A stretch of DNA of 42,122 bases from an uncultured Blastocatellaceae bacterium (GCA_964516695.1 CAZEZJ010000001.1:7241-49362); one strand, 5' to 3'; positions 1 through 23,610 are shown, numbered from the stretch's first letter. Notes: generated from the letters alone by a model not told the origin. A program made the numbers and translations.

Positions 1-1416
1 TGTTTTAGTCCGAGCCATGAAGGTGTGGCTCTCTTCGACGAAGGCGTACAGCGGCCCACGACGACCGCCGGACACACGGGCAGCAACGCCATCGAATTCT
101 CTCAATCGGCGGATACGCTCTACGGTTATAACAACGAGTCAACCGAATTTGGCTTCCGTAAGATGAATGTGAGCGCCGCCGGTGTAGCGGTGACGAGCGT
201 GACGCAGAACTCCATCTATGGCTTCGGCGTGGACATCAAGGCCGACAACGGCCTGATTTACTCAAACACAGGTCTCGTCATTGACCCGCAGACGGGCGCA
301 CGCGTCGGCACGTTTAGCGGCCCCGGTTTCGGTTCTCTGGTCGCGCCGGATTCAGCGACGGGCCGCGTCTATTTCCTCACTCCCCAATCTTCGACTATGC
401 TTTTGCGCGCCTACGATATGCGTACCTATCTGCCCATTGATGCCGTTCGCATCACAGGCGTGAGCGGCACGCCGACCGGCCTCATTCGCTGGGGCGCGGT
501 CGGGCTGGCCTTCCGCACAGACACGGGCCGCGTCTATCTGGTTCGCACGCATCTCGTGCCCGCCGCCAATCAGCCGAGCGATTTTGACGGCGACGGCAAG
601 GCGGACGAAGCAATCTGGCGTCCCAGCGACGGCAACTGGCACATTCGTCAAAGCTCGGATAATTCTTCCAGAGTTCAGTACGACTGGGGCAGCGGCGCTC
701 TCGGAGACGTGGCCGTGCCGGGCGACTACGACGGCGACCGCAAGACTGACTTCGCCGTCTGGCGCAAGCCCGAAGGTAATTGGTACATTGTGCGCAGTTC
801 GACCAATACCGTGAGCGTGCAAAATTGGGGCGACAGCAGCGACGTGGCTGTGCCGGGCGATTATGACGGCGACCGCAAAGGTGATTTGGCCGTCTGGCGG
901 CCCTCGGACGGCAACTGGTATGTCCTGCAAAGCCTGACGAACACGGTCAGGATATACAACTGGGGAACTCTCGGAGACACGCCTGTGCCCGGAGACTACG
1001 ACCGCGACGGGCGCACGGATGCCGCCGTCTTCCGTTCAGGCGAGGGCAATTGGTACATCCTTCAGAGCGCGACTAACACGGCGCGGCTGGTCAGTTGGGG
1101 CGGCGGCGGAGACAAGCCTGTCGCAGCCGATTATGACGGCGATGGCCGGACGGACGTGGCCGTCTTCCGCGAAGCTGAAGGCAGTTGGTACATCCGCCGT
1201 AGTTCCAACAACACCGTCAGGGTGAAAAGCTGGGGCCTCGCCGGTGATGCGGCTGTTCCGGCGGACTACGACGGCGACGGGCAAGCTGACCTCGCCGTCT
1301 GGCGTCCCTCGGACGGCAATTGGTACATCCTCCAAAGCATTACCAACACCGTGCGCGTTCACGGCCTCGGCCTCTCCGGCGATGTCTGTGTTCCGTCCGC
1401 TTACCTGCCGCAGTAA
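1..1416 (+). CDS. FG-GAP/VCBS-like repeat protein, C-terminal part (5' end outside window)
   Basis: Frame 1 is open from nt 1, so the gene starts upstream. nt 580-1413 encode six tandem ~45-47 aa repeats D[YF]DGD[GR]xxDxAVWRPSxGNWYI...WG..GD.PVPG, which is the Ca-binding DxDGDG propeller-blade signature. The protein ends ...PSAYLPQ. Confidence 0.8.
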   Translation, partial: CFSPSHEGVALFDEGVQRPTTTAGHTGSNAIEFSQSADTLYGYNNESTEFGFRKMNVSAAGVAVTSVTQNSIYGFGVDIKADNGLIYSNTGLVIDPQTGARVGTFSGPGFGSLVAPDSATGRVYFLTPQSSTMLLRAYDMRTYLPIDAVRITGVSGTPTGLIRWGAVGLAFRTDTGRVYLVRTHLVPAANQPSDFDGDGKADEAIWRPSDGNWHIRQSSDNSSRVQYDWGSGALGDVAVPGDYDGDRKTDFAVWRKPEGNWYIVRSSTNTVSVQNWGDSSDVAVPGDYDGDRKGDLAVWRPSDGNWYVLQSLTNTVRIYNWGTLGDTPVPGDYDRDGRTDAAVFRSGEGNWYILQSATNTARLVSWGGGGDKPVAADYDGDGRTDVAVFREAEGSWYIRRSSNNTVRVKSWGLAGDAAVPADYDGDGQADLAVWRPSDGNWYILQSITNTVRVHGLGLSGDVCVPSAYLPQ

Positions 1417-1524: not shown

Positions 1525-3540
1525 CTAGCCTTTCGGAATTTCGATGCCGATGGCTTGGAGAAATCCGGTGGGCTTATCGCCGCCGATGAGCGCGAAGATA
1601 TAATCGTTTGGCAGCTTTATCTTCTCTTCTCTCGTGCGCGCGTCCATCAGCGCGACTTCGCCGTCCGCGATTGATTTGATGGCTTCGCCCAGACGCAACT
1701 TGATTTTGCCTTCGTCGATACACTGGTAGACCTGTAGCTTGTTGCCAAACTTCAAATCGTTCTTAAAGTCGCTGCGCACGACGAGCGTGACGTCGTTAAT
1801 CTCCGGCGGTGGACGAAAAACAATCTGCTCGCCGTCGCGCCGCGCGACCAAATCCACGGCGGCCTCAACGGCTGAGTTGCCGCCGCCGACGATGATGACG
1901 CGGCGACGTTTGAAGTCGTCAGGGTTGGAAAGCTTGTACATCACCTTGCTGCCCGTTTGCCCGTCGCGCGTAATCTGCATGTCTTCATTTTTGACGCCGA
2001 GCCGCATCGGCGTGCCGCGATTGCCGATAGCCAGCACGACGCGCCGCGCGCGATACGTCGCCTTCACCTTCTGCGGGCCTTTCTCCGTCTCAATCAAAAA
2101 ATAATCGCCGTCCTCGGCCTTCAAGACCTTCTGGCAACTCTCGCCTTCGTTGATGTGAACGTCGCCCGCCCTCATGTTGTTGAGCCACGTTTCCAGCATC
2201 TCCTCGCGTTGCTCTCCGGCGATTTTCTTGCGCATCTCGCCCATAATCTTTTCGCGCAAACCCTTGACCAACTGCGCGCGCGCGCTCTCATTGAGATTGC
2301 CGCGTAAGGGGGAAACGACCTGTTCCATCGTCTCGACGACCATCAGCTTGCGCTGCTCTATCGGCATCTCTAAAGACTGCGTTCCCGCTTTATCTTGCAA
2401 AGCCTCCGCCACGGGCAGAGCGCGTTTACCGTGTCCAGAGTCCGTCATCTGCCCGGAGAGTTCGTCCACGATGATTTCGCAGATGGCTGTCAACATCAGG
2501 TCGCGCTGTTCGGAAGCGAGTTTGTCCGCTTTCTTAAAAAGCGATTCGATAATCCGGCGCACGAGCGCGATGTCGCGCACCAGCGCATCCGAATCCGCCG
2601 CGCTTTGTTCGCTGAGGAGTTTGGCGAGCGCTTCTTCGACAAGCTGCTCGCGATGGTCGTATAGCCCTGGAACTTCTATTGCGCCGCGCCATTCCATCGT
2701 CTCCGGCTTGAGAAAAACGTACTTGCCCTTCGGATACGCATCAATCGTCGCCAGCACTTTGTCCTGCTCGATGGCGACGAACTTGAGATTGCATTTGCGC
2801 GCCATCAAAGCCGCTGACAATCCTGCGACGCCAATGCCGATGACGGCCACATCAAGCTCCGCCTTCGGCTCCGGCGCGACACCGTTATTCAGTTCTTGCG
2901 CGATGTGCTTGATGACATCCGCGCCTTCGTTAGCGGCGTTTTTGATGAGCGGCGTGCCCGACACATCGCCGATGATGTAGCAGCCCGCAACGTTCGTCAT
3001 AAACTTTTCGTTGCGCACGGGAACGGGACGCGGGCGTATCTTCTTGGTCGTGTTGACGACGATACACGCCTTCGGATTAACGGGACATTCAAGCTGGCAG
3101 GCCGTGTCTTCCAAACACTGGTCGGGAGCAACAGGCGTGGCGATGTTGTCCTTCATCGCCAACACGTCGTGCGGGCACGCATCAACGCAGGCATGACAGC
3201 CGATGCAGCGGTTCGGAAAAATAACGGGGTGCGGATAGTCCGGCCCATTCGGGTCTAAGAGTGCGAGTTCTTCAGGTGTAATCGGAATGGTCAGGTCAAC
3301 ATCGTCGTCAACAACTTTCGGCGGCGCGGCTGGCTTGGTCAACAAATAACGGGCCAGAGCCGCATCGCTCAAAGCGAAGCCGACGGCGACGATGATGAGA
3401 AATACACTGATGCCCGCCCACCCGTACCACGGCAGGCCGCCGAAGTAGCTCTTCAAAAACTCGCCCTCGCCGGACCACTGGTTAATCGCCAGCAGCAACA
3501 TCAGAAGCGCGAGAATAAGCAGCAATTGCGACTTCTTCAT
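1525..3540 (-). CDS. Membrane-anchored 4Fe-4S ferredoxin / FAD- and NAD(P)H-binding pyridine nucleotide-disulfide-type oxidoreductase
   Basis: Two N-terminal hydrophobic helices. CIGCHACVDACP (canonical CX2CX2CX3CP) plus an atypical CLEDTACQLECP. GxGxxG (VIGIGVAG) and GxGxxA (VGGGNSAVEAA) dinucleotide folds. An AGCYIIGDV flavin motif and a long charged helical insert are also present. Confidence 0.8.
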   Translation of the reverse strand: MKKSQLLLILALLMLLLAINQWSGEGEFLKSYFGGLPWYGWAGISVFLIIVAVGFALSDAALARYLLTKPAAPPKVVDDDVDLTIPITPEELALLDPNGPDYPHPVIFPNRCIGCHACVDACPHDVLAMKDNIATPVAPDQCLEDTACQLECPVNPKACIVVNTTKKIRPRPVPVRNEKFMTNVAGCYIIGDVSGTPLIKNAANEGADVIKHIAQELNNGVAPEPKAELDVAVIGIGVAGLSAALMARKCNLKFVAIEQDKVLATIDAYPKGKYVFLKPETMEWRGAIEVPGLYDHREQLVEEALAKLLSEQSAADSDALVRDIALVRRIIESLFKKADKLASEQRDLMLTAICEIIVDELSGQMTDSGHGKRALPVAEALQDKAGTQSLEMPIEQRKLMVVETMEQVVSPLRGNLNESARAQLVKGLREKIMGEMRKKIAGEQREEMLETWLNNMRAGDVHINEGESCQKVLKAEDGDYFLIETEKGPQKVKATYRARRVVLAIGNRGTPMRLGVKNEDMQITRDGQTGSKVMYKLSNPDDFKRRRVIIVGGGNSAVEAAVDLVARRDGEQIVFRPPPEINDVTLVVRSDFKNDLKFGNKLQVYQCIDEGKIKLRLGEAIKSIADGEVALMDARTREEKIKLPNDYIFALIGGDKPTGFLQAIGIEIPKG

Positions 3541-3548
3541 AACTCTTC

Positions 3549-3617
3549 AGGTTTCAAGGTTTCGAGTTTCAGGTTTCAAGTTCTGCTCCGTAACTTGAAA
3601 CCTGACACTTGAAACCT
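3549..3617 (-). repeat. Nested palindrome of GGTTTCAAG-type units in an intra-operon spacer
   Basis: Core perfect 12-bp stem AGGTTTCAAGTT (3571-3582) / AACTTGAAACCT (3592-3603) with a 9-nt loop. Extra copies of AGGTTTCAAG lie 5' and of CTTGAAACCT lie 3'. It fills the 80-nt gap between the cytochrome gene stop and the flavoprotein gene start. Confidence 0.7.
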
Positions 3618-3620
3618 AAT

Positions 3621-5120
3621 TTATTGCGCGATGAGCGCAGGCTCCGTGGTCTTCAAATCCTTGATGATGGGCAAGCCCGCGGGCGCGCCAAAGAGCTTGG
3701 GCGTCCAGTGTATGTCTTTGATGTGTTGGACGTGGCAAGAGGTGCAGCTTGGCCCGCTGGCCGAAGGCATTTTAGCATCGGCGCGCTCGAAGAAAAGATT
3801 TGTATGACACTTCGAGCAGGTCGTGCGCGGGCTTTCGCGGTCGAGGCGTGCGCCGATGTAGCCCGTGCGGTGGCAACTGCTGCAAGACATCACACGGTTT
3901 GTGTTGTCAACGTCTTCAATGCCGTGGACGTTGAAGGGCACGCGCACGCGGTACATATGAATGCCGTGAAACTGCACGTTGCGCCAGTTGCGTTGATTGT
4001 CCGGCGTGACGCGATTCTTCCTTAACAGTTCGACGACTTCGGGCCTCACGGCCAGTTCTTCCGCGTCCAGTCCCTTCCAAACCCACTCGCCGTTTTTCAC
4101 CGGATAGCCGAAGGTGCCGCCGTGCGGAGTATGCACGCTCTTGCCGTTGTAGAGTTTCTTGTTGTTGTCGTTGTGGCAGCGGGCGCAGGCATCGAGCGCG
4201 TAGTTCATCGGGCTGAAATTCTCGCCGCGATGCTCCGTGTGGCAACTCATGCAGCCGATTCCGGCGTCGCGATGAGGCTTGATGACCGTGGCCGTGAAAC
4301 CGTCGGTCGTATGACAAGAGGTGCAGTTGGCCTCGATGCTGTTCGCCATCGTGTGGCAGTTTGTGCATGAGCCGGCGTTCGGTTTAGTGGCAATCGCGGG
4401 GATGAGCGAAAAGGAGGTCGCGTTGTGCGGGTTCGAAATGGGCTGCGGCGCAAACGCGTTGGCGTGAGCGTACCAGGCCAGAACTGACAGCCCGCCGATG
4501 ACGAGAGCGCCCCAGACGAAAATCGAGAAGGTCCACGGGCGAACCAAATCGCGCGTCGGCGTCCAGTTAAAACGCGACTTGCCGACGTGCGGCGGGCGGC
4601 GCGGGTGCAAGGGGCTGGGGCGTCCGGCCTTCTCGCGCGTGCGCTTGCCCCAGAAGACCTTGAGCGCGTCGGCCACTTCCGACGACGCGCGCTTGGCCGC
4701 GGCGCGCTGCTGCATCGCCCGCATCTCGCTCGACTTTGCGCCGCTCGTCCGCGCTTCAACCTCTCCGACGTTCATCGCAAACTGGTGCGAGACTCTGATA
4801 TGCAAATCGTTGTGGCGATAGTCGAAGTAAAGAGAAAAGGGACCGATTTGCAGAACGTCGCCGTCAGCGAGCGCTTCCGCTTCGTCAGCTTCGATGAGCC
4901 GCCCGTTGAGCGTCGTCGAGCTTGAGCGGCTAAGATTGATGAGAAAGAAGCGTCCGGCGATGAAGTTGATTCCGGCATGGAGGCGCGAAACCGAAGGATG
5001 ATTAAGAGAGACTTCGCACTCCGGCAGACGGCCCACGCGCAAGCCCTCTGTGACCAGCGTGGTCGAGTCTTGCGCACGGTCCTCGCGCGTGATGACGATG
5101 GTGCCTCTCTGTACGTCCAT
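3621..5120 (-). CDS. FHA domain - single TM - heptaheme c-type cytochrome fusion protein
   Basis: N-terminal FHA signature (GR...VSRLHA...LSRSSSTTLNG). Hydrophobic helix WTFSIFVWGALVIGGLSVLAWYA at aa ~196-218. Seven CXXCH motifs: CTNCH, CTSCH, CMSCH, CARCH, CSSCH, CSKCH, CTSCH (aa 252-463, nt ~3711-4373). Confidence 0.85.
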   Translation of the reverse strand: MDVQRGTIVITREDRAQDSTTLVTEGLRVGRLPECEVSLNHPSVSRLHAGINFIAGRFFLINLSRSSSTTLNGRLIEADEAEALADGDVLQIGPFSLYFDYRHNDLHIRVSHQFAMNVGEVEARTSGAKSSEMRAMQQRAAAKRASSEVADALKVFWGKRTREKAGRPSPLHPRRPPHVGKSRFNWTPTRDLVRPWTFSIFVWGALVIGGLSVLAWYAHANAFAPQPISNPHNATSFSLIPAIATKPNAGSCTNCHTMANSIEANCTSCHTTDGFTATVIKPHRDAGIGCMSCHTEHRGENFSPMNYALDACARCHNDNNKKLYNGKSVHTPHGGTFGYPVKNGEWVWKGLDAEELAVRPEVVELLRKNRVTPDNQRNWRNVQFHGIHMYRVRVPFNVHGIEDVDNTNRVMSCSSCHRTGYIGARLDRESPRTTCSKCHTNLFFERADAKMPSASGPSCTSCHVQHIKDIHWTPKLFGAPAGLPIIKDLKTTEPALIAQ

Positions 5121-5251: not shown

Positions 5252-7744
5252 CTAATGCGCCCTGAAGTAGACGACCTGAAAAATGTGCACGAGCATGAGC
5301 GCCAGCATTAAAGAGGTGGAGACGACGTGCGGCGCGAGCCAGAGCTTGAGCAGTTGGTGCAGGTAGATGAGCGCATCAACGCGCCGCAGCGTGGCGGTCG
5401 TCTCGATGGCTTCGATTAAGAGACGCCGCGCCGCGGGGTCTAGCAAGTCTCCCGCCGCACGCTCAAACGTGGTGCGGGCCTCGGCCCACAGCGCCGTCAA
5501 TTCCTCGCGCCGGATATACTGCCGCAGCAAATATCTGAACGAGAGAAAACGCTTGCGCACCTTGCGCGTGATGAGCTTGCGCAATTTGGTTTGGTCCGGC
5601 TCGGCAATGGTCGCAATCTCGTCGCTAATCTGCGAGAGCGTTTCGCGCAATTCCGCGCGCCGCTCTCTTAAGTCTTCGATGAGCAGCGGGTCGCCTTCGA
5701 TGCTGGTCATAATGCGCGGCACGACGACGTAACAAATGATGCCGAAGAGTCCGGTGACGATGACGAGGTCGAACGTGACCATCAGGAGCGAAGTCAGCAG
5801 CCCGCCGGAGGAGCGCCCGCCGTGCAGGAGCAAGACGATGCCGGCGATTAATCCCAGATAGACGTGCGACAGCATCCAGTAGCGCAAGGGGCCTGCGCGG
5901 CGGCGGTAAATCTGCTTGCGCGCCGGATAGACCATCACCCACGCGATGCCGAAGAGTCCAACGAAGCCCGTCAACCAGCGCACGGTCAGCCAACTGCTGC
6001 CGCCTAGAAGCGCGTCCATCGTGTACTTACGCGCGGCCCAGAAAGTTAAAACAGTCAGGGCAACGGTCGCCAAGATTCCGCCGATGTGCCACATCAAAGC
6101 AACGGGGTCGCGCTTGTGTATGTTGCGCCCGATGGCGTGCGTCTGGTCGCGGAAGATGAGACCGATAGCGTTTTTCGCCTCGCTGAAATATTCACGTGGG
6201 TTCACGCGCACGAGCGCGCCCGTCGGGCAATTCTCCTCGCAGGAGTAAGCATGACGGCGCGTGCCCACGGGATTGAGCGGCGTGTTGTTGCAGAGATTGC
6301 ATTTGACGGCGAGCAGGTTTTCCGTCTCCGTCACAGGCAGAGGCTTTCGCGGCTCTGCGAGCGTCACCCAGTCAACGAGACGTGCGGGCAGACTGATGTG
6401 CGGTAGAGAGGCTTTGCGCGGAATCATCGAAATCGCGTTGTAGGGACATTGCGTGGCGCAATCGCCGCAGCCGATGCAGGTCTTCGGGTTAATGTCTATC
6501 TGCCCGCCGGCGAAGCGTCCGATGGCTCCGGTCGGGCAGCCCGTCAGGCATTCAGGGTCTTGGCAGTGTAGGCAGACGGCGGGCATCAAGACATGCTGAA
6601 TGGAAGCGCGTTGCGGCTCGACGGGGCGCGAGATGTGTATGCCGCGCCTGAGCAGCCTCGACTGGCCGTGAATCTTATGACAGGCCAGCGAGCAATTGCC
6701 GCAACGGACGCACAAGTCCATGTCCATCACGAGCAGATTCATGCCGTCAACGACGCCCGTGGAAATCTCCTTTCCGGCGGCCATCACCACGCGCTTGTCG
6801 GCGGCGGGCTGCGGCGCGGCGGCGTCAGCCAAACCGGAGAAGGCGGCAAACTCCGCGAGCACGGCGGCGCGCAAATCAGGATTGGCTTGCAAGTAAGAGA
6901 CGGAAATCTCCAACACTTCGGTGCGCGCCATGACGGTCGCCGTGTAGAGCCAATCTTGCTGTTCGCGCAGGGCTTCGAGGCCGAGGCAATTGCCAGCGCC
7001 GAGAAAGTCAACGCCCATCTGCTCGCTCACACCCAAGACCATCTCCGACAGTTCAGGGTTGAAGGCCACGCCGCGCGTGCGCCTGACCCAACCGTTTTTG
7101 ATGAAGACGACGCGATTGATGGGGTCTTTCTCTTGAAAGAGCACGTGGTTTTTTCCGTAGACGGTAAAGCGCGCGGCGTTGCCAAGTTTCTTCAGCAGTT
7201 CAGGACTGAAGGCGTTGCCCGCCGCTTGTCTGACATCTTCGAGCGTGCGTTTTAATCCGTGGTCGCGGTAGGTCACGTCGAGCATGTGGCCGAACTTCGG
7301 AAGCTTGCGCAGCAGTCGAAACGCGGGCCGCTGGATTTCGAGCACCTTGGCCTCTGCTTCCGGCGAAGCAATGACGGATGCGTTGCGCGGCAAGCCCGCC
7401 AGCACGGCCATCTCGCCAAAACTCTTGCCTTGCGGAATCTCCGCGACCTTCGCGCTCTTGCCGCTCTCATCCTGAACGAAAACGTCCACCTTGCCTTCGA
7501 CCAGAATATAGAAGGCGTTGCCGCCCCAGTCGCCCTGATTGATGATTTTCTCGCCCGGCTCGTAAATCCAGTAAGTCGCATAGGGGCCGACCTTCTTGCC
7601 CGCGTAGTTGCGCCCGTAGACGATGACTTCCAAATCAAGCTCATACTTGAAATGGCCGTCTTGACGGTCAACCAATTCGGCAATCAGGTCAACGCTCTTG
7701 ATGGCTTCGAGGATGCTTGTGTGATTGGTGATTTCGCGAGGCAT
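5252..7744 (-). CDS. Tandem cyclic-nucleotide-binding domains + four-cluster ferredoxin (DmsB/NrfC-like Cys pattern) + 5-TM domain with two HX13H helices
   Basis: The first CAP-type domain has the cassette FGEMAVLAGLPRNASV; the second is degenerate (GLEAL...LYTATV). Cys groups: CVRCGNCSLAC, CLHCQDPECLTGCP, CIGCGDCATQCP, CNLC...CEENCP. C-terminal TM helices include SHVYLGLIAGIVLLLHG and PHVVSTSLMLALMLVHI. No signal peptide is present. Confidence 0.85.
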   Translation of the reverse strand: MPREITNHTSILEAIKSVDLIAELVDRQDGHFKYELDLEVIVYGRNYAGKKVGPYATYWIYEPGEKIINQGDWGGNAFYILVEGKVDVFVQDESGKSAKVAEIPQGKSFGEMAVLAGLPRNASVIASPEAEAKVLEIQRPAFRLLRKLPKFGHMLDVTYRDHGLKRTLEDVRQAAGNAFSPELLKKLGNAARFTVYGKNHVLFQEKDPINRVVFIKNGWVRRTRGVAFNPELSEMVLGVSEQMGVDFLGAGNCLGLEALREQQDWLYTATVMARTEVLEISVSYLQANPDLRAAVLAEFAAFSGLADAAAPQPAADKRVVMAAGKEISTGVVDGMNLLVMDMDLCVRCGNCSLACHKIHGQSRLLRRGIHISRPVEPQRASIQHVLMPAVCLHCQDPECLTGCPTGAIGRFAGGQIDINPKTCIGCGDCATQCPYNAISMIPRKASLPHISLPARLVDWVTLAEPRKPLPVTETENLLAVKCNLCNNTPLNPVGTRRHAYSCEENCPTGALVRVNPREYFSEAKNAIGLIFRDQTHAIGRNIHKRDPVALMWHIGGILATVALTVLTFWAARKYTMDALLGGSSWLTVRWLTGFVGLFGIAWVMVYPARKQIYRRRAGPLRYWMLSHVYLGLIAGIVLLLHGGRSSGGLLTSLLMVTFDLVIVTGLFGIICYVVVPRIMTSIEGDPLLIEDLRERRAELRETLSQISDEIATIAEPDQTKLRKLITRKVRKRFLSFRYLLRQYIRREELTALWAEARTTFERAAGDLLDPAARRLLIEAIETTATLRRVDALIYLHQLLKLWLAPHVVSTSLMLALMLVHIFQVVYFRAH

Positions 7745-8266: not shown

Positions 8267-11131
8267 ATGAGCAACAATCTGCTTGCATTGATGAAGCTGG
8301 GCCAATCCATCTGGTACGACAATATCCGGCGCGCGATGCTGGAAAGCGGCGACTTGCAGACGAAGATAACGGAAGACGATTTGCGCGGCGTCACGTCGAA
8401 CCCGACCATCTTTGAAAAGGCCATCACCGGCTCAACAGACTACGATGAGCAGTTTCGCTCGCTCGCTAGCTCGGGCAAGAGCGTGCAGGAGATTTACGAA
8501 GCGCTGGTGCTCGAAGACATCGGTGACGCCGCCGATATCCTCCGGCCCGTTTACGACAAGACTAACGCGCTCGACGGCTACATCAGCCTCGAAGTCAACC
8601 CGCGATTGGCCTACGATACACAGGGCACGATTGAGGAAGCCGAGAGACTGTTCAAGCAGTTGAATCGTCCGAACGTGATGATTAAGATTCCGGCCTCGCA
8701 AGAAGGCTTGCCCGCCATCGAGGAGAGCATCTATCGCGGCATCAACATCAACATCACGATGATTTTCGCCATCGCCAATTACGAGCAGGTGGCCGAAAGC
8801 TTCATCAGAGGACTCGAACGCCGCGCCGCCGAAGGCAAGCCGGTCGAGCGCATCGCATCGGTCGCCAGCTTTTTCGTTTCGCGCGTTGACACGAGCATTG
8901 ATAAAGAGTTGGAAGACCGCGCCGAGAAAGCGGCCACCCCCGAAGAGAAACAGCGTTTGGAAAGCTTGCTGGGCCGCGCGGCCATCGCCAACGCGAAGCT
9001 TGCTTACCAGAAATTCAAAGAGATTTTCCACGGCGAGAGATTCAAGGCGCTCAAAGCACAGGGCGCGCAAGTGCAGCGCTGCTTGTGGGCTTCGACGGGA
9101 ACGAAGAATCCGAAGTATTCGGACGTCCTGTATGTTGATAATCTGATTGGCCCGGAGACGGTCAACACCGTTCCGCCCGCGACCTACACAGCCGTTCGCG
9201 ACCACGGGCGCGTGGAGTTAACGCTCGAAGAGAATCTGGACGAAAGCCGCGCTCTCATCGCTCAACTTTCAGGATTAGGCATCGACCTGAAGGCCGTGAC
9301 CGACAAGCTACAGCAGGACGGGCTGACGGCTTTCGTCGGCTCGTTTGACACGCTCGTCGAATCCATCGAAGCCAAACGCGACGCCCTTCTCTCCGGCATT
9401 CAAGGGAGGCTCGTGTCCAGCTTGGGAAAGTACGCTGACGCGGTGAACGCCGCGCTCAAGGAGGCGGACAAGGGCGAGGTGATGCGCCGCATCTGGCGCA
9501 AAGACGCCTCGCTTTGGAAGACGGACGAAGCGCACCAGAAGATTATCAAAAACGCGCTCGGCTGGCTGAACGTGCCCGACGCGATGATTGGCGTCGAGGA
9601 TGATTTGATAGCCTTCGCTGACCGCATTCGCGAGGGTGGCCGTTTTCGTCACGTCATGCTCTGCGGGATGGGCGGCTCGTCGCTCTGCCCCGAGGTCTTT
9701 CGTCAAACCTTCGGCGCGCAAAGCAACTATCCCGAACTGCTCGTCCTCGATTCGACAGACCCGGACGTGCTCGAAAGTTTCTCCCGGCAGATTGACCTCA
9801 AAAGCTGTCTCTTTATCATCTCTTCAAAATCGGGCACGACGACCGAACCGCTCGCCTTCTACAAATATTGGTACGACCAGGTAAGTAAGGTGAGCGACAA
9901 CCCGGGCGAGAGCTTCGTCGCCATCACAGACCCCGGCACGAAGATGGAGCAGATGGCGACTGAAGACAAATTCAGGCGCATCTTTCTCAACCCGCCGGAC
10001 ATCGGCGGGCGCTACTCCGCGCTCTCTTACTTCGGCATTGTCCCGGCAGCGCTCGCTGGCCTCGACATCACGAAATTGCTCGACCGCGCGGAGCGCATCG
10101 TTCATTCTTGCGCATCGGTCGTCCCGGCAGCCGAAAATCCCGGCGCGCGTCTGGGCGCAATCCTCGCGGAGTGTGCGCGGGCCGGACGCGATAAGCTGAC
10201 CATCATCGCTGACCCGAAAATCAGCGCGCTCGGCCTCTGGATTGAACAACTCGTCGCGGAAAGCACCGGCAAGGAAGGCAAAGGAATCTTGCCCGTCTCG
10301 GGCGAGCCGCTCGGGGGCCCATCCGTTTACGGTGATGACCGCCTCTTCGTCTCTCTGGCGGTCGGTCGCATTGACGGCGAGACGGAAGTGAAGCTCAAAG
10401 CGCTCGCAGCCGCGGGCCACCCAATCGTTTATCGCACGCTGACGGATTTGTACGACTTGGGCGAAGAGTTTTTCCTGTGGGAGATTGCGACCGCGTTCGC
10501 CGGCTATCGTCTCGGCATCAATCCGTTTGACCAGCCCAACGTGCAGGAATCGAAGGACGCCACCAAAGAACTGCTCGACGCGTTTACACAAAGCGGCGCG
10601 TTGACAGAGCAGATGATGCTCGCGACCGACGGCACGTTGACCGTCTACGTTGACGAACCCGTGCGCGCTCTTCCGTCTTCTTCCGTGGGCGACGTTCTCG
10701 CAGCACATTTATCAAGGGCGGGCGCGGGCGACTACATCGCGTTGCTCAGCTACATAGAGGAAACACCCGAGCACGAAGCCCTGCTTCAGGCCATCCGCAC
10801 CAGCTTGCGCGACGCGACCCGTTGTGCGACAACCACGGGCTACGGCCCGCGCTTTCTGCATTCGACCGGACAACTGCATAAGGGCGGCTCCGACGCTGGC
10901 GTCTTTCTGCAAATCACCGCGCCAGACCACACAGACCTTCCTATTCCCGAAGCGGCTTACACCTTTAGCATTCTCAAGCAGGCGCAAGCGCTCGGTGATT
11001 TTCGTTCGCTCTCATCGAGAGGCCGCCGCGCCATTCGCGTTGACTTAGGTGCGGACGCGGTCGCAGGTCTCAGGCAGTTGCAACAACTAATCGGCGCAGC
11101 CATCCCGCGCTCCGAAGCACAGAAGCAGTAA
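8267..11131 (+). CDS. tal-pgi: Bifunctional transaldolase / glucose-6-phosphate isomerase
   Basis: 954 aa. The N-terminal ~370 aa look like transaldolase (LGQSIWYDNIRR..., TSNPTIF, MIKIPA). The C-terminal part looks like PGI (GMGGSSL, SKSGTT-E). A GAGGAG RBS lies 8 nt upstream of the ATG. Confidence 0.9.
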   Translation: MSNNLLALMKLGQSIWYDNIRRAMLESGDLQTKITEDDLRGVTSNPTIFEKAITGSTDYDEQFRSLASSGKSVQEIYEALVLEDIGDAADILRPVYDKTNALDGYISLEVNPRLAYDTQGTIEEAERLFKQLNRPNVMIKIPASQEGLPAIEESIYRGININITMIFAIANYEQVAESFIRGLERRAAEGKPVERIASVASFFVSRVDTSIDKELEDRAEKAATPEEKQRLESLLGRAAIANAKLAYQKFKEIFHGERFKALKAQGAQVQRCLWASTGTKNPKYSDVLYVDNLIGPETVNTVPPATYTAVRDHGRVELTLEENLDESRALIAQLSGLGIDLKAVTDKLQQDGLTAFVGSFDTLVESIEAKRDALLSGIQGRLVSSLGKYADAVNAALKEADKGEVMRRIWRKDASLWKTDEAHQKIIKNALGWLNVPDAMIGVEDDLIAFADRIREGGRFRHVMLCGMGGSSLCPEVFRQTFGAQSNYPELLVLDSTDPDVLESFSRQIDLKSCLFIISSKSGTTTEPLAFYKYWYDQVSKVSDNPGESFVAITDPGTKMEQMATEDKFRRIFLNPPDIGGRYSALSYFGIVPAALAGLDITKLLDRAERIVHSCASVVPAAENPGARLGAILAECARAGRDKLTIIADPKISALGLWIEQLVAESTGKEGKGILPVSGEPLGGPSVYGDDRLFVSLAVGRIDGETEVKLKALAAAGHPIVYRTLTDLYDLGEEFFLWEIATAFAGYRLGINPFDQPNVQESKDATKELLDAFTQSGALTEQMMLATDGTLTVYVDEPVRALPSSSVGDVLAAHLSRAGAGDYIALLSYIEETPEHEALLQAIRTSLRDATRCATTTGYGPRFLHSTGQLHKGGSDAGVFLQITAPDHTDLPIPEAAYTFSILKQAQALGDFRSLSSRGRRAIRVDLGADAVAGLRQLQQLIGAAIPRSEAQKQ

Positions 11132-11206
11132 AAGGAGGAATGATGAACGCGGAACGATGAACTATTCGAAGCTTGTCTTTGACTGCCGCGTTCATCGTTC
11201 CTCCTT
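11132..11206 (+). repeat. Long hairpin in the tal-pgi / zwf spacer
   Basis: AAGGAGGAATGATGAACGCGG (11132-11152) pairs 20/21 with CCGCGTTCATCGTTCCTCCTT (11186-11206). The 33-nt loop carries a central AAGCTT. Confidence 0.7.
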
Positions 11207-11229
11207 CATCATTTTTCCGAAGGAAAGTT

Positions 11230-12771
11230 ATGTCCTCGATTGTCATGGAAAACCCTCTGCGTGAGGGCATCAGGCTTGAACGAACGGCCGGGCCGTGTGC
11301 GGTCGTCATTTTCGGGGCGAGCGGCGATTTGACGAAACGCAAGCTCTTGCCCGCGCTCTACAGGCTGGTGCAGCAGCGTCTTGTCCCCGCCGAGTTTGCC
11401 ATTGTGGGCCTCGCGCGAACGGAGATGACGAGCGAAGAGTTTCGCGCGCGGATGCGGGAAGCGATTGAGGAGTTTTCGGCGGAGAAGAGCGTTGACGAAG
11501 AGGTCTGGAATTCGTTTGCGCAGAGCCTCTACTACATCACCGGCGACATCAACACGCCCGCCGATTACGTGAAGCTCACCGAACTGCTCGAACAGGTTGA
11601 CCGCGAGCGCGGCACGCAAGGCAACCGCCTCTTTTATTTGTCCGTCGCGCCGCGCTTCTACAGCGAAGCCGTCAAGCAGTTGGGCGAGGCCGGACTCGCC
11701 AAAGCTCAAGACGGAGCGTGGGTGCGCGTCATCATCGAAAAGCCGTTCGGCTCTGACTTGACGAGCGCACGCGCTCTCAATCAGGAGATTCACCAGCACC
11801 TACACGAGTCGCAAATCTATCGCATCGACCATTATCTCGGCAAAGAGACCGTGCAGAATTTGCTGGTCTTTCGTTTCGCCAACGGCATCTTCGAGCCGCT
11901 CTGGAATCGCCAGTACATAGACCACGTTCAACTGACGAACGCCGAGGCGGTCGGCGTTGAAGGACGCGGCGGCTACTACGAGACGGCGGGCGTCGTGCGC
12001 GACATGATTCAGAACCACGTCTTTCAGGTGCTTTCGCTAGTCGTGATGGAGCCGCCCGCGAGCCTCGATTCGGAAGCCGTGCGCGACGAAAAATATAAGG
12101 CGATGATGGCCGCGCGCCCGTTCACAACTGAGCGCGTGCGCGAGGAATGCGTGCGCGGGCAATACGGGCCGGGTTCGATTGCGGGTCAACCCGTGCCCGG
12201 CTACCGGCAGGAAGAGGGCGTCGCGCCTGACTCCGCGACCGAGACCTTCGCGATGCTCACCATGTACTTCGACAACTGGCGCTGGGCGGGCGTGCCCTTC
12301 TTCATCCGCTCCGGCAAGCGCCTGCCAAAGCGCGTCACAGAGATTGCGATTCAATTCAAGTCTGCCCCGCTACAGCTTTTCGGTGAAGCCGGAGAACACG
12401 TCGCGCCCAACCAACTCATCATCCGCATTCAGCCCGACGAGGGCATTACGCTTCGCTTCGCCGCCAAGATTCCAGGACAGACGACCAACATCCGCGAAGT
12501 CAACATGGACTTTCGCTACGGCGCATCCTTCGGCATCCAACTCGCGGAGGCTTACGAACGCCTCCTGCTAGATTGCATCCTTGGCGATTCCACGCTCTAC
12601 GCGCGCAAGGACATGACCGAACACGGCTGGGAACTCGTCATGCCTATCCTAGACGAATGGGCCGCGACGAAAAACGAGGTTGAGTTTCCCAACTACGAAG
12701 CCGGAACCTGGGGGCCACAAAGCTCTCACGAGATGCTCGAACGCACGGGCCGCCGCTGGCGCAGGCCGTAA
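11230..12771 (+). CDS. zwf: Glucose-6-phosphate 1-dehydrogenase
   Basis: Motifs VIFGASGDLTKRKL, RIDHYLGKE and EKPFG. The ATG at 11230 is preferred over the TTG at 11173, which lies inside the upstream hairpin. Confidence 0.92.
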   Translation: MSSIVMENPLREGIRLERTAGPCAVVIFGASGDLTKRKLLPALYRLVQQRLVPAEFAIVGLARTEMTSEEFRARMREAIEEFSAEKSVDEEVWNSFAQSLYYITGDINTPADYVKLTELLEQVDRERGTQGNRLFYLSVAPRFYSEAVKQLGEAGLAKAQDGAWVRVIIEKPFGSDLTSARALNQEIHQHLHESQIYRIDHYLGKETVQNLLVFRFANGIFEPLWNRQYIDHVQLTNAEAVGVEGRGGYYETAGVVRDMIQNHVFQVLSLVVMEPPASLDSEAVRDEKYKAMMAARPFTTERVREECVRGQYGPGSIAGQPVPGYRQEEGVAPDSATETFAMLTMYFDNWRWAGVPFFIRSGKRLPKRVTEIAIQFKSAPLQLFGEAGEHVAPNQLIIRIQPDEGITLRFAAKIPGQTTNIREVNMDFRYGASFGIQLAEAYERLLLDCILGDSTLYARKDMTEHGWELVMPILDEWAATKNEVEFPNYEAGTWGPQSSHEMLERTGRRWRRP

Positions 12772-12775
12772 AAAC

Positions 12776-12849
12776 GGTAATAGGTGATAAGTGATGGGTG
12801 ATAAGTAAAAGCTTTTCTCCTATTACCTATCACCCATCACCCATCACTG
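12776..12849. repeat. Heptamer-built imperfect palindrome (GTGATRR family), copy 2
   Basis: GGTAATA GGTGATA AGTGATG GGTGATA AGTAAAA GC TTTTCTC CTATTAC CTATCAC CCATCAC CCATCAC. The centre is AAAAGCTTTT (12807-12816). It fills the zwf/opcA spacer. Confidence 0.8.
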
Positions 12850-12861
12850 TTTTTGAGAGTT

Positions 12862-14028
12862 ATGGAAACACAGACGCACGAAAGCACGGTTTCGGTCTCG
12901 ACGCTGCGAGGGATTGATGTCGGCAGGATAGAGAAGGAACTGGCGATGATGTGGCAGCAGGCATCTGCCGTGGGACAGGGCGCGGATGACGCGGGCGTGG
13001 TGCGCGCGTGCGCGTTGAATCTGATTGTTTACACGACCGCGCAGGAAGACCGCGCGCAGATAAACGAGATGCTCGAAGCGATTAACGAGCGGCATCCGGG
13101 ACGCGCGCTGGTGCTGGTGGCCGACCGCGCTTCGAGCGCTTCGAGCCTTGAGGCTTACGTCTCCAGCCGTTGTCGCGCGCTGGGCGCGAGCAAGCGGCAG
13201 GTCTGCGGCGAGCAGGTGACGATTGAAGCGGCTGGGCCAATCGTTGAGATGGCAGCCAGCGCTATCGCCCCGCTGCTCGTGCCCGACGTGCCTGTCTTTC
13301 TCTGGTGGAAAGACATTCCGCATGATGACGATAAATTGTTTGACCGCATGGCCCGCATGTCGGACCGCGTGGTGATTGATTCGGCGGCCTTCGACCACCC
13401 GCGCGAAGACCTGCTGCGCTTGGCAGACATAGTGCGCTCGCTTGGGCGAGACACGCGCATCTCCGACCTCAACTGGGGACGCCTGACTTCATGGCGAACG
13501 CTGCTGGCGAGTTTCTGGGACGTGGCGGAATATCGCCCGCATCTTGAGCGCATTGAAAGCGTGAAGATAGAGTATGACCCGCCCGATGTCGCGCCAGGCG
13601 AGATAGCGCCGAAGGCTCTGCTCGCCGCGGGCTGGCTCGCCTCGCGGCTCAATTGGAAGTTGGAAGAGGACGGCGCAACGAGAGAGGGCGACACGTCGCG
13701 CTTCAGGTTTACGACAGCGGCGGCGCAACCGCTCGTTGTCGAAATGCGTGCGCTGCATGATGAACAAGGAGCGGACGGAATGCTGGCCTCTTTAACTCTG
13801 ACGGAAGCGACAAACCGCGCCAGCTTTTCCGTCGCTCTCAGCCGCGACGGACACAGGCTGGAAACAAAAGCCAGCATGGATGACACACACACGGTCGGGC
13901 GCGTGCTGGCCTATGAACAGAAAAGCGAGGGGCAGCGTCTTAGCCGCGAGCTTGGCTTGCTGGCGCGTGACCGTATCTATGAGCAAACGCTCTTTCTCGC
14001 CGCCGAATTGACCGCCGCCGTAAAATAG
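12862..14028 (+). CDS. opcA: OpcA-like glucose-6-phosphate dehydrogenase assembly/effector protein
   Basis: It sits immediately after zwf. The length (~390 aa) fits, and the VRACALNLIVY-type N-terminal motif is recalled from the OpcA family. The ATG at 12862 is preferred over the TTG at 12853. Confidence 0.7.
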   Translation: METQTHESTVSVSTLRGIDVGRIEKELAMMWQQASAVGQGADDAGVVRACALNLIVYTTAQEDRAQINEMLEAINERHPGRALVLVADRASSASSLEAYVSSRCRALGASKRQVCGEQVTIEAAGPIVEMAASAIAPLLVPDVPVFLWWKDIPHDDDKLFDRMARMSDRVVIDSAAFDHPREDLLRLADIVRSLGRDTRISDLNWGRLTSWRTLLASFWDVAEYRPHLERIESVKIEYDPPDVAPGEIAPKALLAAGWLASRLNWKLEEDGATREGDTSRFRFTTAAAQPLVVEMRALHDEQGADGMLASLTLTEATNRASFSVALSRDGHRLETKASMDDTHTVGRVLAYEQKSEGQRLSRELGLLARDRIYEQTLFLAAELTAAVK

Positions 14029-14071
14029 AGAGTATCAAAATGTTCTGCTCTTAAATCTCTGTAGCGACGTG

Positions 14072-15082
14072 ATGATAAAAAAAATGATTCTGGCCGGGGA
14101 TATTGGTGGAACGAAGACGAATGTGGCGCTGCTGGAAACAGACGGGCGCGAAGCGGGCGCGCTCGTCGCCCAGAAGACGTTTCCGAGCGCCGATTATGAT
14201 TCGCTGGAAAAGATGATTGAGGAATTTCTCGCCGCGGAGCGACGGCCCGCTTTGACGCACGCTTGCTTTGGTGTGGCCGGGCCGGTCGTTGACGGGCGCG
14301 TGGATGCGACGAATTTGAAGTGGGATGTGAGCGCCGATGCGCTAGTCAAAGTTTTGGGCATCTCTCGCGTCAGTATCATCAACGACCTTGAAGCGACGGC
14401 TTACGGCATCGAAGCGCTCACGCCCGCGCAGTTGCACACGCTCAATAAAGGAACGGGAGCACGCGACGGCAATCGTGCATTGATTGCCGCCGGAACGGGC
14501 CTCGGCATGGCCGGACTCGTCCGCCATGAAGGCCACTATTATCCTGTCCCCTCCGAAGGCGGGCATACGGATTTCGCTCCGCGCAACCATCTGGAAATGC
14601 AACTGCTCGATTACCTGTTGAAGAATGAAGAGTTCGGCGGGCACGTCTCTTACGAGCGCGTGCTTTCGGGGCCTGGCCTCTTCACTATCTATAGTTTTCT
14701 GCGCGACACGGGCTTCGCCGAAGAGCCTGCGTGGTTGGCCACAGAGATTGCCGGCGAAGGCGACAATTCGGCTGTCGTCTCGCGTGCGGCGCTGGCACAC
14801 GAATCCGAGTTGGCCGTCAAAGCCCTGGACATGTTCGTCCGCATCTACGGCGCGATGACAGGTAATCTCGCGCTGTTGATGATGGCGACAGGCGGCTGCT
14901 ATGTCGGCGGCGGCATCGCGCCGAAGATTATCGAAAAGCTCAAGGACGGCGCTTTCCTTGAGACCTATATCGCCAAAGGCAGATTCCAATCGCTGCTGGC
15001 CGCAATGCCCGTGCATGTTATTCTCGACGATAAGACGGCTCTCTACGGCGCGGCGCTCAAGGCGCTCGAAACGAGCGGGTGA
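14072..15082 (+). CDS. glk: Glucokinase
   Basis: N-terminal ILAGDIGGTKTN ATP-binding motif, ~335 aa, and a Glk-family layout. The start could be 14069, 14072 or 14084. Confidence 0.85.
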   Translation: MIKKMILAGDIGGTKTNVALLETDGREAGALVAQKTFPSADYDSLEKMIEEFLAAERRPALTHACFGVAGPVVDGRVDATNLKWDVSADALVKVLGISRVSIINDLEATAYGIEALTPAQLHTLNKGTGARDGNRALIAAGTGLGMAGLVRHEGHYYPVPSEGGHTDFAPRNHLEMQLLDYLLKNEEFGGHVSYERVLSGPGLFTIYSFLRDTGFAEEPAWLATEIAGEGDNSAVVSRAALAHESELAVKALDMFVRIYGAMTGNLALLMMATGGCYVGGGIAPKIIEKLKDGAFLETYIAKGRFQSLLAAMPVHVILDDKTALYGAALKALETSG

Positions 15083-15849
15083 GTTTTCAGGTGACAGAGA
15101 CAAAGCAGTTCCCAAAAGTTTCCATCTTTGAAGAAGCGGAAGAGGTGGCGCGCGCTGCCGCCGAACGCTTCGTCGCAGCGGCAGGCGAAGCGATTGAGGC
15201 GGAGGGTCGTTTCAGCTTGGCGCTCGCGGGAGGCTCAACTCCGCGGCGCACCTATCAACTGCTGGCGAGCGACGACTTCAAAGACCGCGTTGACTGGACC
15301 AAAACGCACGTCTTCTTTGGCGACGAACGATGCGTGCCGCCAACCGATGCCGACAGCAATTACCGGATGGCGGATGAAGCGCTGCTCTCGCGCGTCAGCA
15401 TTCCTGCGCGCAACGTTCACCGCATCAGGGGCGAGGGCGACGCGGTGGCAAACGCGCGGCTCTACGAGGATGAGCTTCAGACTTTCTTTGCCAATGAACG
15501 CTGGCCGCGCTTTTCGCTCGTCCTGCTCGGCATGGGCGACGACGCCCACACGGCCTCGCTCTTTCCCGGCACACAGGCGCTCGCGGAGCAAAGAGCGTGG
15601 GTGGCGGCCAACTGGGTCGAGAAGCTAAACGCCTACCGCATCACGCTCACGGCTCCGGCCATTAACCACGCCGCGCGAATTGTTTTCCTCGTGACGGGAG
15701 CGGGCAAGGCCGAGAGCTTACAATCAGTCTTGCTCGGCAGAGCGCCCGATTCCGGTTTAGAGTCTGAATTATTACCTTCGCAGTTGATTCGCCCCGTAGA
15801 CGGCGCGTTGGAATGGCTCGTTGATAGAGCGGCAGCAGCACGCCTCTAA
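15079..15849 (+). CDS. pgl: 6-phosphogluconolactonase
   Basis: Motifs LALAGGSTP, FFGDERCVP and LLGMGDDAHTASLFPG. The GTG start overlaps the glk stop (GTGA). Confidence 0.9.
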   Translation: MSFQVTETKQFPKVSIFEEAEEVARAAAERFVAAAGEAIEAEGRFSLALAGGSTPRRTYQLLASDDFKDRVDWTKTHVFFGDERCVPPTDADSNYRMADEALLSRVSIPARNVHRIRGEGDAVANARLYEDELQTFFANERWPRFSLVLLGMGDDAHTASLFPGTQALAEQRAWVAANWVEKLNAYRITLTAPAINHAARIVFLVTGAGKAESLQSVLLGRAPDSGLESELLPSQLIRPVDGALEWLVDRAAAARL

Positions 15850-20775: not shown

Positions 20776-21408
20776 ATGAAGTCAAGAGCATTGATTCGTT
20801 TGAGTAAATTCGGCCAGAGCGGGTTGGCGTTAGTGCTGGCGTCAGTCTTGCTGCTGTGGCCTGTGTCGGTGTCTGCCTGTGCGTGCTGCTCGGAGGAAGG
20901 CACTTGGGCCGAGTGGACTGAGCGTTTCGACGCATCGGAGTTGGAGGAACTCAGCCGTATCAGATTCGACGCGGTCGCTAACCTCTATGCGAACAACGAA
21001 GAAGAAGCGGGCGGCGGGACTATCGGCAATCTTTACGGCGAACTCGCGCTCTCGTTCTCGAAGCGTGGCCGCCAGTGGGACTTGAGACTCAAAGACCAAC
21101 AGGGGCACAGCGGCACACTGACGCTGACCGTTCCCAACACCCTCACCGAATTTCAAGTGGACATGCAAGACGGGCAGAAAAGCGCGGGCGGCGGGCCGCT
21201 GCTCTACAAGGAATGGCGCTTGACGGGCGCGATTACCGGCGGCGGAGTCTTCAAGCGCCTGAACTCGCGGCAACTGAAATACCGCCTCGTTCTTCAGGGT
21301 CGCGGCAATGCCTGCACGAGCGCCGAAATGTTTGATAGCTGGACGCTCCAAATCTTCGGCCCGCGCGTCTCCTACTCTTTCTACGGCAAATTCAAAAAAC
21401 TCGCTTAA
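20776..21408 (+). CDS. Hypothetical lipoprotein with an N-terminal Cys-Ala-Cys-Cys motif
   Basis: GGGAGAG RBS. The signal peptide ends in the lipobox-like VSAC, followed by ACCSEEG. No recognisable domain. Confidence 0.6.
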   Translation: MKSRALIRLSKFGQSGLALVLASVLLLWPVSVSACACCSEEGTWAEWTERFDASELEELSRIRFDAVANLYANNEEEAGGGTIGNLYGELALSFSKRGRQWDLRLKDQQGHSGTLTLTVPNTLTEFQVDMQDGQKSAGGGPLLYKEWRLTGAITGGGVFKRLNSRQLKYRLVLQGRGNACTSAEMFDSWTLQIFGPRVSYSFYGKFKKLA

Positions 21409-21454
21409 CGAATCACTGCCTTCCAGCGTGGCCGATGTGATACGCTTGGGTGCG

Positions 21455-23137: not shown

Positions 23138-23203
23138 GGAGAGGCGAACGCCTGTTTGGCTAGCGCGTTTATTTCACGCAACTGTGGATGCATATAATTG
23201 AAG

Positions 23204-23578: not shown

Positions 23579-23610
23579 CTCTACTGGCTCCTGACTTTCG
23601 GCATTGAGGT

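Follow-up and report, generated by a model that had tools for sequence, protein, structure and literature searches.

Does the membrane domain at the end of an otherwise soluble protein hold two b-type haems, and if so, between which partners would it carry electrons? The question is raised by gene A, which encodes a protein of 830 residues in a stretch of 42,122 nucleotides from an uncultured Blastocatellaceae bacterium (GCA_964516695.1 CAZEZJ010000001.1:7241-49362; hereafter the window, meaning the whole stretch analysed, with positions counted from its first nucleotide). The N-terminal part of the protein consists of cyclic nucleotide monophosphate (cNMP)-binding and iron-sulfur (Fe-S) domains, and the C-terminal part of membrane helices, two of which carry a pair of histidines separated by 13 residues (HX13H). 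The best explanation of the locus as a whole, to which a probability of roughly three in four is attached, is a signal-gated di-haem cytochrome b wire that would lead electrons from the product of gene C through that of gene A to the periplasmic cytochrome encoded by gene B.

An earlier reading of the DNA, made from the sequence alone and referred to here as the sequence-only reading, had assigned the two HX13H helices to particular codons. Reading of the minus strand with residue indexing returns exactly these positions: His627 is encoded by nucleotides 5864-5866 and His641 by 5822-5824, and His806 by 5327-5329 and His820 by 5285-5287. In both peptides, SHVYLGLIAGIVLLLHG and PHVVSTSLMLALMLVHI, 13 residues stand between the histidines, as had been claimed, and both pairs lie within hydrophobic segments. 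A hydropathy scan of gene A yields five transmembrane (TM) helices (Table 1), of which TM3 contains His627 and His641 and TM5 contains His806 and His820, and the C-terminus of the protein follows 5-10 residues beyond TM5. The two motif helices had been described as separated by a TM helix and a soluble helical segment of ~110 residues, a description that agrees with TM4 and a charged segment of 117 residues, which AlphaFold2 predicts to be helical with a predicted local distance difference test score (pLDDT) of ~90-95. Two AlphaFold2 models were made, with overall pLDDT values of 78.5 and 87.8, the second from a more diverse alignment of 58 sequences. Shuffling of the 290-residue membrane domain, which has 8 histidines, gives P = 0.012 for the occurrence of at least two HX13H pairs; coming from one sequence, this value is suggestive and not decisive, and it is because of conservation across relatives that the motif cannot be put down to chance.

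Conservation of the histidines among homologues was one of two points on which the sequence-only reading had staked its case, and the four residues proved invariant in all 44 sequences of a diverse alignment. With the membrane domain as query, 598 close relatives were found, mostly from soil metagenomes and Pyrinomonadaceae, and in none of the 598 does a Pfam domain cover the membrane part; the four histidines are invariant in 29 of these, none of which shares less than 56% identity with the query. When a library clustered at 50% was searched with a profile, 2062 relatives were returned, including fused forms of other lineages and stand-alone proteins of ~265-312 residues. Also among them is P0138, a metagenomic protein of 1277 residues in which a large N-terminal region of unknown nature, a cytochrome c domain with seven CxxCH sites and the membrane domain are joined in one polypeptide, making it a Rosetta-stone link between genes A and B. 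Both motifs, with a spacing of exactly 13, are found in the diverse members that cover the full domain (43/43), and the 44-sequence alignment, which reaches down to 20% identity, has six invariant columns only: W623, H627, H641, G665, H806 and H820. Close to invariant are W802, R609 and G593, each kept in 42/44, and G668 (41/44), while TM1 is unconserved and the segment between TM4 and TM5 has no cysteine or histidine that is conserved across the family. The family signature thus comprises G593 on TM2 with Y606 and R609 in the loop that follows, W-x3-H-x3-G-x9-H-x-G on TM3, G-x2-G-x3-Y-x3-P on TM4, and W-L-x2-H-x13-H on TM5.

The same picture emerges at larger scale. The four histidines are likewise invariant in three further alignments (A2, A3 and A4), and a census of 307 fetched family proteins, each of at least 255 residues, located both motifs in 297, the remaining 10 having been matched by the profile search over part of the domain only. 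The distance from motif to motif is 157-184 residues in 294 of the 307 proteins and shorter in three (P0188, P0192 and P0244), whose HX13H helices are merely 103-121 residues apart, an indication that the predicted cytoplasmic insert is shortened in some lineages. These three were considered as bridges to classical families and rejected, as they are still cNMP and/or Fe-S fusions; no cytochrome b Pfam model matches them above threshold. A second profile search, started from the stand-alone forms, returned at least 7283 proteins.

The arrangement of the helices can be deduced from the domains to which they are joined. The loop between TM2 and TM3 has six lysine or arginine residues and no aspartate or glutamate, obeying the positive-inside rule, and because the cNMP and Fe-S domains that precede the membrane part have to lie in the cytoplasm, TM3 and TM5 are predicted to be parallel, running from inside to outside. 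His627 and His806 are then 5 and 8 residues from the inner (cytoplasmic) ends of their helices, and His641 and His820 are 2 and 5 residues from the outer ends. On a helix, 14 residues correspond to a computed rise of 21 Å and a rotation of -40 degrees, so each pair of histidines occupies one helix face at two depths. The histidines would therefore pair up across TM3 and TM5 at two membrane depths, four conserved residues being placed for two bis-histidine sites in the manner expected of a di-haem cytochrome b. Bis-histidine pairs at two depths are the textbook di-haem geometry of cytochrome b and of NADPH oxidase (NOX). The proposal of two b-haems made in the sequence-only reading thus gains strong inferential support, short of proof, from the conservation of the histidines, the parallel topology and the presence of redox partners on both sides of the membrane, namely a 16-cysteine domain fused on the inside and a heptahaem cytochrome c on the outside.

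The inside partner occupies the N-terminal 520 residues of the protein, where Pfam places two cNMP-binding domains (best E value 7.3e-26) and Fer4 families; the same scan finds no Pfam domain in the membrane part. As read from the translation, the stretch FGEMAVLAGLPRNAS of the first cNMP domain resembles an intact, canonical-looking phosphate-binding cassette, judged against the cassettes of CAP and PKA. The equivalent stretch of the second domain, LGAGNCLGLEAL, lacks the arginine, again from the translation only, and that domain may be unable to bind nucleotide. The cysteines of the Fe-S domain lie at residues 345/348/351/355, 391/394/399/403, 423/426/429/433 and 482/485/502/506, and this layout, 16 cysteines in four groups, is taken to indicate a wire of four [4Fe-4S] clusters like that of DmsB, NrfC, DsrO and FdnH. 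Residues 338-444 match the NCBIfam models for ArrB, DsrO, NrfC, DmsB and HybA, all well under the cutoff.

Genes B and C follow gene A directly on the same strand, separated by gaps of 131 and 80 nucleotides in which no terminator-like site was seen. Pfam matches the product of gene B to FHA (4.2e-14) and to families of cytochrome c3/c7, and the oxidoreductase domain encoded by gene C is of the pyridine-nucleotide-disulfide type, resembling YpdA and TrxR.

Table 1. Genes A, B and C of the window and the predicted parts of the protein encoded by gene A
Feature	Position in window	Strand	Residues	Remarks
Gene A	5252..7744	-	830 in all	Open reading frame
First cNMP-binding domain	7316..7564	-	61-143	PF00027
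Second cNMP-binding domain	about 6845-7190	-	about 185-300	PF00027; more degenerate
Fe-S domain	6185..6733	-	~338-520	16 Cys in four groups
TM1	6029..6106	-	547-572	Hydrophobic anchor; no conserved positions
TM2	5921..5989	-	586-608	Conserved Gly593; then basic cytoplasmic loop with Tyr606 and Arg609
TM3, first bis-His helix	5816..5881	-	622-643	W623-x3-H627-x3-G631-x9-H641-x-G643
TM4	5705..5803	-	648-680	G665-x2-G668-x3-Y672-x3-P676; no ligand; rich in conserved glycines
Cytoplasmic helical insert	5354..5704	-	681-797	Starts with a semi-conserved E683...E690-D691 motif
TM5, second bis-His helix	5270..5353	-	798-825	W802-L-x2-H806-x13-H820
Gene B	3621..5120	-	499 in all	FHA domain on the cytoplasmic side; single TM helix (196-218); seven CxxCH haem-c sites in the periplasmic domain
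Gene C	1525..3540	-	671 in all	Two N-terminal TM helices, 4Fe-4S ferredoxin domain, FAD/NAD(P)-binding oxidoreductase

The association of the three genes is not peculiar to the window. Among 80 related loci, all from Blastocatellia/Pyrinomonadaceae, gene A is followed by the FHA part of gene B in 78, by its cytochrome part in 76 and by gene C in 70, and the loci without a B or C neighbour are mostly contig ends. Distant relatives, located by contig look-ups and a tblastn search of plasmids, are about 20-25% identical (L081-L085, L089, L091 and L093), and they divide the same parts differently among genes. In L081-L084 a cNMP and Fer4 protein, a stand-alone membrane protein and a protein with two FHA domains, Fer4 and Pyr_redox are encoded in this order, the membrane-protein gene of L082 overlapping the preceding gene at the stop and start codons and three cytochrome c genes lying upstream of the module in L081. 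On plasmid pMSHV of Sphingobium herbicidovorans (L085), a Pyr_redox protein of 825 residues with two cNMP domains and a 16-cysteine Fe-S domain is followed by a membrane protein of 296 residues, in which W-x3-H-x13-H occurs twice, and then by a decahaem cytochrome preceded by an FHA domain and a TM helix. A metagenome-assembled genome of Nitrospinota (L093) encodes, in this order, a Fer4 and Glu_synthase-type flavin mononucleotide (FMN) flavoprotein (166-1557), a cNMP and Fer4 protein, the membrane protein and a cytochrome c; L091 has two cytochrome c genes, a cNMP and Fer4 gene and the membrane-protein gene, and in Ca. Xenobia (L089) the membrane protein is encoded beside a multihaem cytochrome of 726 residues.

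The flavoprotein, cNMP, Fe-S, membrane, FHA and multihaem cytochrome c parts are thus met repeatedly, split and fused at different points, in Acidobacteriota, Sphingobium, Nitrospinota and Ca. Xenobia. As far as these gene arrangements can tell, the constant core is the Fe-S protein, the membrane domain and the cytochrome c. The input flavoprotein appears to be interchangeable, a Fer4 and Glu_synthase-type protein replacing Pyr_redox in L093, and the presence of cNMP and FHA domains in every version suggests control by a second messenger and by Ser/Thr phosphorylation.

Several neighbouring genes touch on the possible donor, ligand and acceptor of such a module. Divergent from it in the window, at 8267-15849 (+), are genes for a Tal-Pgi fusion, G6PD, OpcA, glucokinase and 6-phosphogluconolactonase, an oxidative pentose-phosphate (NADPH-generating) cluster that could hint at NADPH as the donor; Tal-Pgi is near the module in only 8 of the 80 related loci. 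The Sphingobium module is flanked by two metallophosphoesterase (PF00149) genes (3507-4250 and 11624-12472). Class III cyclic-nucleotide phosphodiesterases belong to the metallophosphoesterase superfamily, so the products of these two genes might set the level of the nucleotide to which the cNMP domains respond. In L082 (10159-12178) and L083 (9207-11226), a gene for an outer-membrane porin of the MtrB/PioB type (PF11854) lies at a distance of about 6 kb, which fits a porin-cytochrome route of extracellular electron transfer. The window also encodes a PilS-like PAS histidine kinase, a sigma-54 response regulator and two FG-GAP repeat proteins (21308-25044 (+), 25-1416 (+) and 25197-27623 (-)), with no apparent connection to gene A.

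The one published system with the same parts that a search of the literature brought up is the marine operon ptdABCDEFG, whose function its authors call "completely unknown" (bioRxiv 10.1101/2023.11.21.568154). The preprint describes PtdC as an oxidoreductase that binds FAD and NAD(P), PtdE as a cNMP-binding 4Fe-4S protein encoded directly before PtdF, and PtdF as a "ferric reductase-like" protein of the cytoplasmic membrane, in an operon that also encodes multihaem cytochromes and a porin; its passages on the operon do not discuss the histidines (bioRxiv 10.1101/2023.11.21.568154). Judged by that description, genes A, B and C supply the same list of parts, with the cNMP, Fe-S and membrane domains, a cytochrome and a flavoprotein, and the stand-alone relatives (L081-L084, L091 and L093) have the exact adjacency of PtdE and PtdF. 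Because of this parts list and this adjacency, rather than any sequence comparison, PtdF very probably belongs to the family of the gene A membrane domain, although a cluster look-up of 10 relatives gave no overlap with the PtdF accessions (Table S7 of the preprint; MBT5131323 and QTD51416). The two systems differ in that gene A joins the counterparts of PtdE and PtdF in one protein and the window module includes an FHA domain, and in that one heptahaem cytochrome stands in place of penta-, tetra- and decahaem proteins (pentahaem PtdA, decahaem PtdG). The ptd operon includes the porin PtdB, whereas no porin is found among the immediate neighbours of the window module, and its hosts are marine bacteria, whereas the window comes from soil Blastocatellia.

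From these observations we infer haem binding, an electron path with its direction, donor and final acceptor, and a mode of regulation. The core of the membrane domain would be a four-helix bundle of TM2 to TM5, with an inner haem near the cytoplasmic face ligated by His627 of TM3 and His806 of TM5, and an outer haem near the opposite face, about 21 Å away, ligated by His641 and His820. Space for the porphyrins would be provided by conserved glycines on TM2 and TM4, the helices without ligands, and the conserved tryptophan one turn below each inner histidine would line the inner pocket. Joined to the fused four-cluster [4Fe-4S] domain, the bundle would form a wire across the cytoplasmic membrane. 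Electrons would enter from NAD(P)H by way of flavin adenine dinucleotide (FAD) and the [4Fe-4S] centre of gene C, pass through the four [4Fe-4S] clusters of gene A to the inner and then the outer haem b, and leave to the seven periplasmic c-haems of gene B. Outward flow is likely because it would be downhill in redox potential and would run with the membrane potential, and reducing power would therefore be dissipated and its energy not conserved. Control would come from the two cNMP domains and the FHA domain, which would gate or adjust the flow in response to cyclic nucleotide and to Ser/Thr-phosphorylation signals.

The main rival, an unlikely one, keeps both haems and makes the quinone pool their main partner, as in FdnI, NarI or CybB: beside one of the haems, (mena)quinone would accept electrons from the Fe-S clusters, or quinol would give electrons up, and cytochrome c would be served indirectly. 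The closest family, PF01292, is that of the quinone-reactive cytochromes b, as is well established for FdnI, HyaC and CybB, and a four-cluster Fe-S subunit that feeds a di-haem cytochrome b is the design of Fdn-N and Nar. However, every context examined, whatever the phylum, has a membrane-anchored multihaem cytochrome c encoded next to the domain or fused to it, and a simple quinone reductase is disfavoured because this constant and occasionally fused cytochrome argues against quinone as the sole role. Beyond the haem motifs, no conserved polar residues were noticed that would suggest a quinone site, a weak point given how hard such sites are to recognise.

The remaining alternatives give up one haem or both. 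It is very improbable that a single haem is bound, as in MsrQ/YedZ or STEAP, with the other histidine pair serving another cofactor or a structural role. Single-haem members are established in the ferric-reductase-domain superfamily (overview in PMC3591440), but the four histidines of gene A are equally invariant, W-x3-H-x13-H stands symmetrically on both helices, and one haem could not span the membrane between the Fe-S clusters and haem c. Even less credence attaches to histidines that ligate no haem and form instead a metal-ion site, a proton relay, or a transit route for haem in cytochrome c maturation. Cytochrome c genes are always nearby, and CcsBA and CcmF are known to use TM histidines in haem trafficking; a role in haem export or as a cytochrome c synthase was nevertheless rejected, for the protein has no WWD domain and merely five TM helices, and its conserved coupling or fusion to Fe-S, flavin and cNMP modules points to redox chemistry. 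A non-haem metal site was rejected too, as it would offer too few ligands, deep in the membrane at two levels, whereas a set of four histidines that share a helix face and lie at two depths is the canonical di-haem geometry.

Regardless of these alternatives, several observations weigh against the di-haem wire from gene C to gene B. Donor, direction and final acceptor had all to be deduced, and the insert beneath the bundle could keep the last Fe-S cluster from coming close to the inner haem. Scores of the membrane domain against Pfam stay under the gathering thresholds. Alignment by hhalign of the family profile with the single Escherichia coli sequences of MsrQ, FdnI and CybB is not significant (probability at most 1.4%), and only the bis-histidine helices align. 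A Foldseek search of the Protein Data Bank (PDB) with the model of pLDDT 87.8 returned no cytochrome, the best E value being 0.15. Searches of PDB sequences with the single domain and with the family profile also returned no cytochrome, the matches (E at least 0.1) being to helical-repeat and coiled-coil proteins over the insert only. For both models the best Foldseek values, about 0.15-0.18, belong to TorS/McpS sensor bundles and the TM domains of ABC exporters; these matches are read as dominated by the long TM4, TM5 and insert, and so as uninformative on haem binding.

A broader interpretation is offered tentatively, at somewhat less than an even chance: gene A may be the founding fused member of an unrecognised di-haem cytochrome b family (at least 7,000 clusters at 90% identity) that forms the core of a signal-gated electron export bypassing the quinone pool, with a swappable flavoprotein oxidising NAD(P)H and with switching by cyclic nucleotide and FHA/phospho-threonine signals. 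If so, the module would be a bacterial counterpart of NADPH oxidase built from separable parts, and a candidate for the missing inner-membrane step of extracellular electron transfer in Acidobacteriota, sphingomonads, Nitrospinota and the marine organisms with ptd. Known bacterial routes of electron exit (CymA, ImcH, CbcL and similar) start from the quinone pool, and one that led electrons of cytoplasmic NAD(P)H by way of Fe-S clusters and two b-haems directly to periplasmic cytochromes would differ from them in design, being downhill with the membrane potential, energy-dissipating and apparently controlled by second messengers and kinases. Family members abound in soil Acidobacteriota, a dominant soil phylum that is little understood, and the idea is open to testing because Sphingobium species, which are cultured and tractable, have them too. 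A model of the family based on the W-x3-H-x13-H motifs of TM3 and TM5 and the G-x2-G of TM4 would annotate thousands of "hypothetical" proteins, and would give the uncharacterised ptd operon a mechanistic core.

How, then, does the membrane domain relate to the cytochromes b already described? No Pfam or NCBIfam model reaches its threshold on the domain in the window protein or in family members, and the domain falls outside both PF01292 and PF01794 by their membership tests. Among the 27 diverse members of alignment A2, sub-threshold matches recur to DUF4405 (12/27), PF01292 (7/27) and Ferric_reduct (3/27), all bis-histidine haem-b membrane families. By sequence profile the nearest is PF01292 (FdnI, HyaC, CybB), which scores 13.5 bits (E 0.064) on the window domain and 20.5-30.0 bits on 10/10 sphingomonad members, against a gathering threshold of 30.1 bits; the sphingomonad match consists of two colinear pieces (profile positions ~13-165), with the insert falling between them, before the last helix. 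Both families have HX13H on the last TM helix, here H806/H820, and H155/H169 of FdnI aligns with family TM5 in the hhalign comparison, although without statistical significance. The two b-haems of Fdn-N, held in a four-helix bundle, receive electrons from a four-cluster Fe-S subunit. PF01292 proteins, however, have four TM helices with ligands distributed 1+1+2 over helices 1, 2 and 4, an assignment that we take from the E. coli CybB and FdnI sequences, whereas here five TM helices carry ligands 2+2 on TM3 and TM5 and TM2 has no conserved histidine. The gene A family has an extra N-terminal TM helix and the ~110-residue cytoplasmic insert before the last helix; its Fe-S partner is cytoplasmic and fused rather than periplasmic, and its far-side partner is a cytochrome c rather than quinone.

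In topology and ligand pattern the domain agrees with PF01794, the family of NOX, FRE, MsrQ/YedZ and STEAP, in which the N-terminus is likewise inside and TM3 and TM5 each bear two histidines, spaced 13 and 12-13; NOX moreover passes electrons from a cytoplasmic flavin outward across the membrane through two stacked haems. PF01794 does not match the window protein (threshold 28 bits), and its best score in the family is 18.1 bits (E 0.0028), in P0181; three of 27 members are matched, below threshold and at E 0.003 or worse. UniRef labels some family members "Ferric reductase like transmembrane component", and the W-x3-H-x12-H helix of MsrQ aligns with family TM3 at an hhalign probability of 0.6%. 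PF01794 proteins have six TM helices and a short TM4-TM5 loop, whereas gene A has five and a loop of 117 residues; the donor here would be an N-terminal Fe-S domain, not a C-terminal FAD/NADPH domain, and electrons would be passed on to a cytochrome c instead of O2 or Fe(III).

Cytochrome b and b6 of the bc1 and b6f complexes offer a further parallel. They contain a four-helix bundle with HX13H (HX14H in b6) and conserved glycines on the non-ligand helices, and they share with gene A two His-pair helices in alternate positions (B and D); their haem separation equals the roughly 21 Å predicted for gene A. No Cytochrom_B Pfam match is found in the window protein or in family members, the orientation in the membrane is opposite, the ligand helices of gene A running from in to out, and gene A has no quinone-site helices and no Rieske or c1 partners. 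The Tmc and Hmc complexes of sulfate reducers follow the same logic as that proposed for genes A and B, with a multihaem cytochrome c in the periplasm, a cytochrome b in the membrane and an Fe-S protein in the cytoplasm. TmcC and HmcE are NarI/HdrE-like, and electrons are thought to move inward in these complexes, from periplasmic H2 or formate; their subunits are unrelated to those of the window module, and they have no cNMP or FHA domains and no flavoprotein.

The sequence-only reading had held that the arrangement does not resemble known families, and this stands in part. Unusual features are the long cytoplasmic insert, the fusion with cNMP and Fe-S domains, and the fact that no family model and no significant structural match was found. 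The 2+2 pattern on parallel helices, on the other hand, is that of cytochrome b and of NOX/FRE, and PF01292 is near, if below threshold. By sequence, then, the membrane domain appears as a distant outlier near PF01292, and by ligand pattern and topology it would work like cytochrome b and NOX/FRE, its 2+2 ligands lying on parallel helices in alternate positions; the most apt description is a putative di-haem cytochrome b with a distinctive cytoplasmic insert, in a conserved, uncharacterised and apparently signal-regulated electron-export module.

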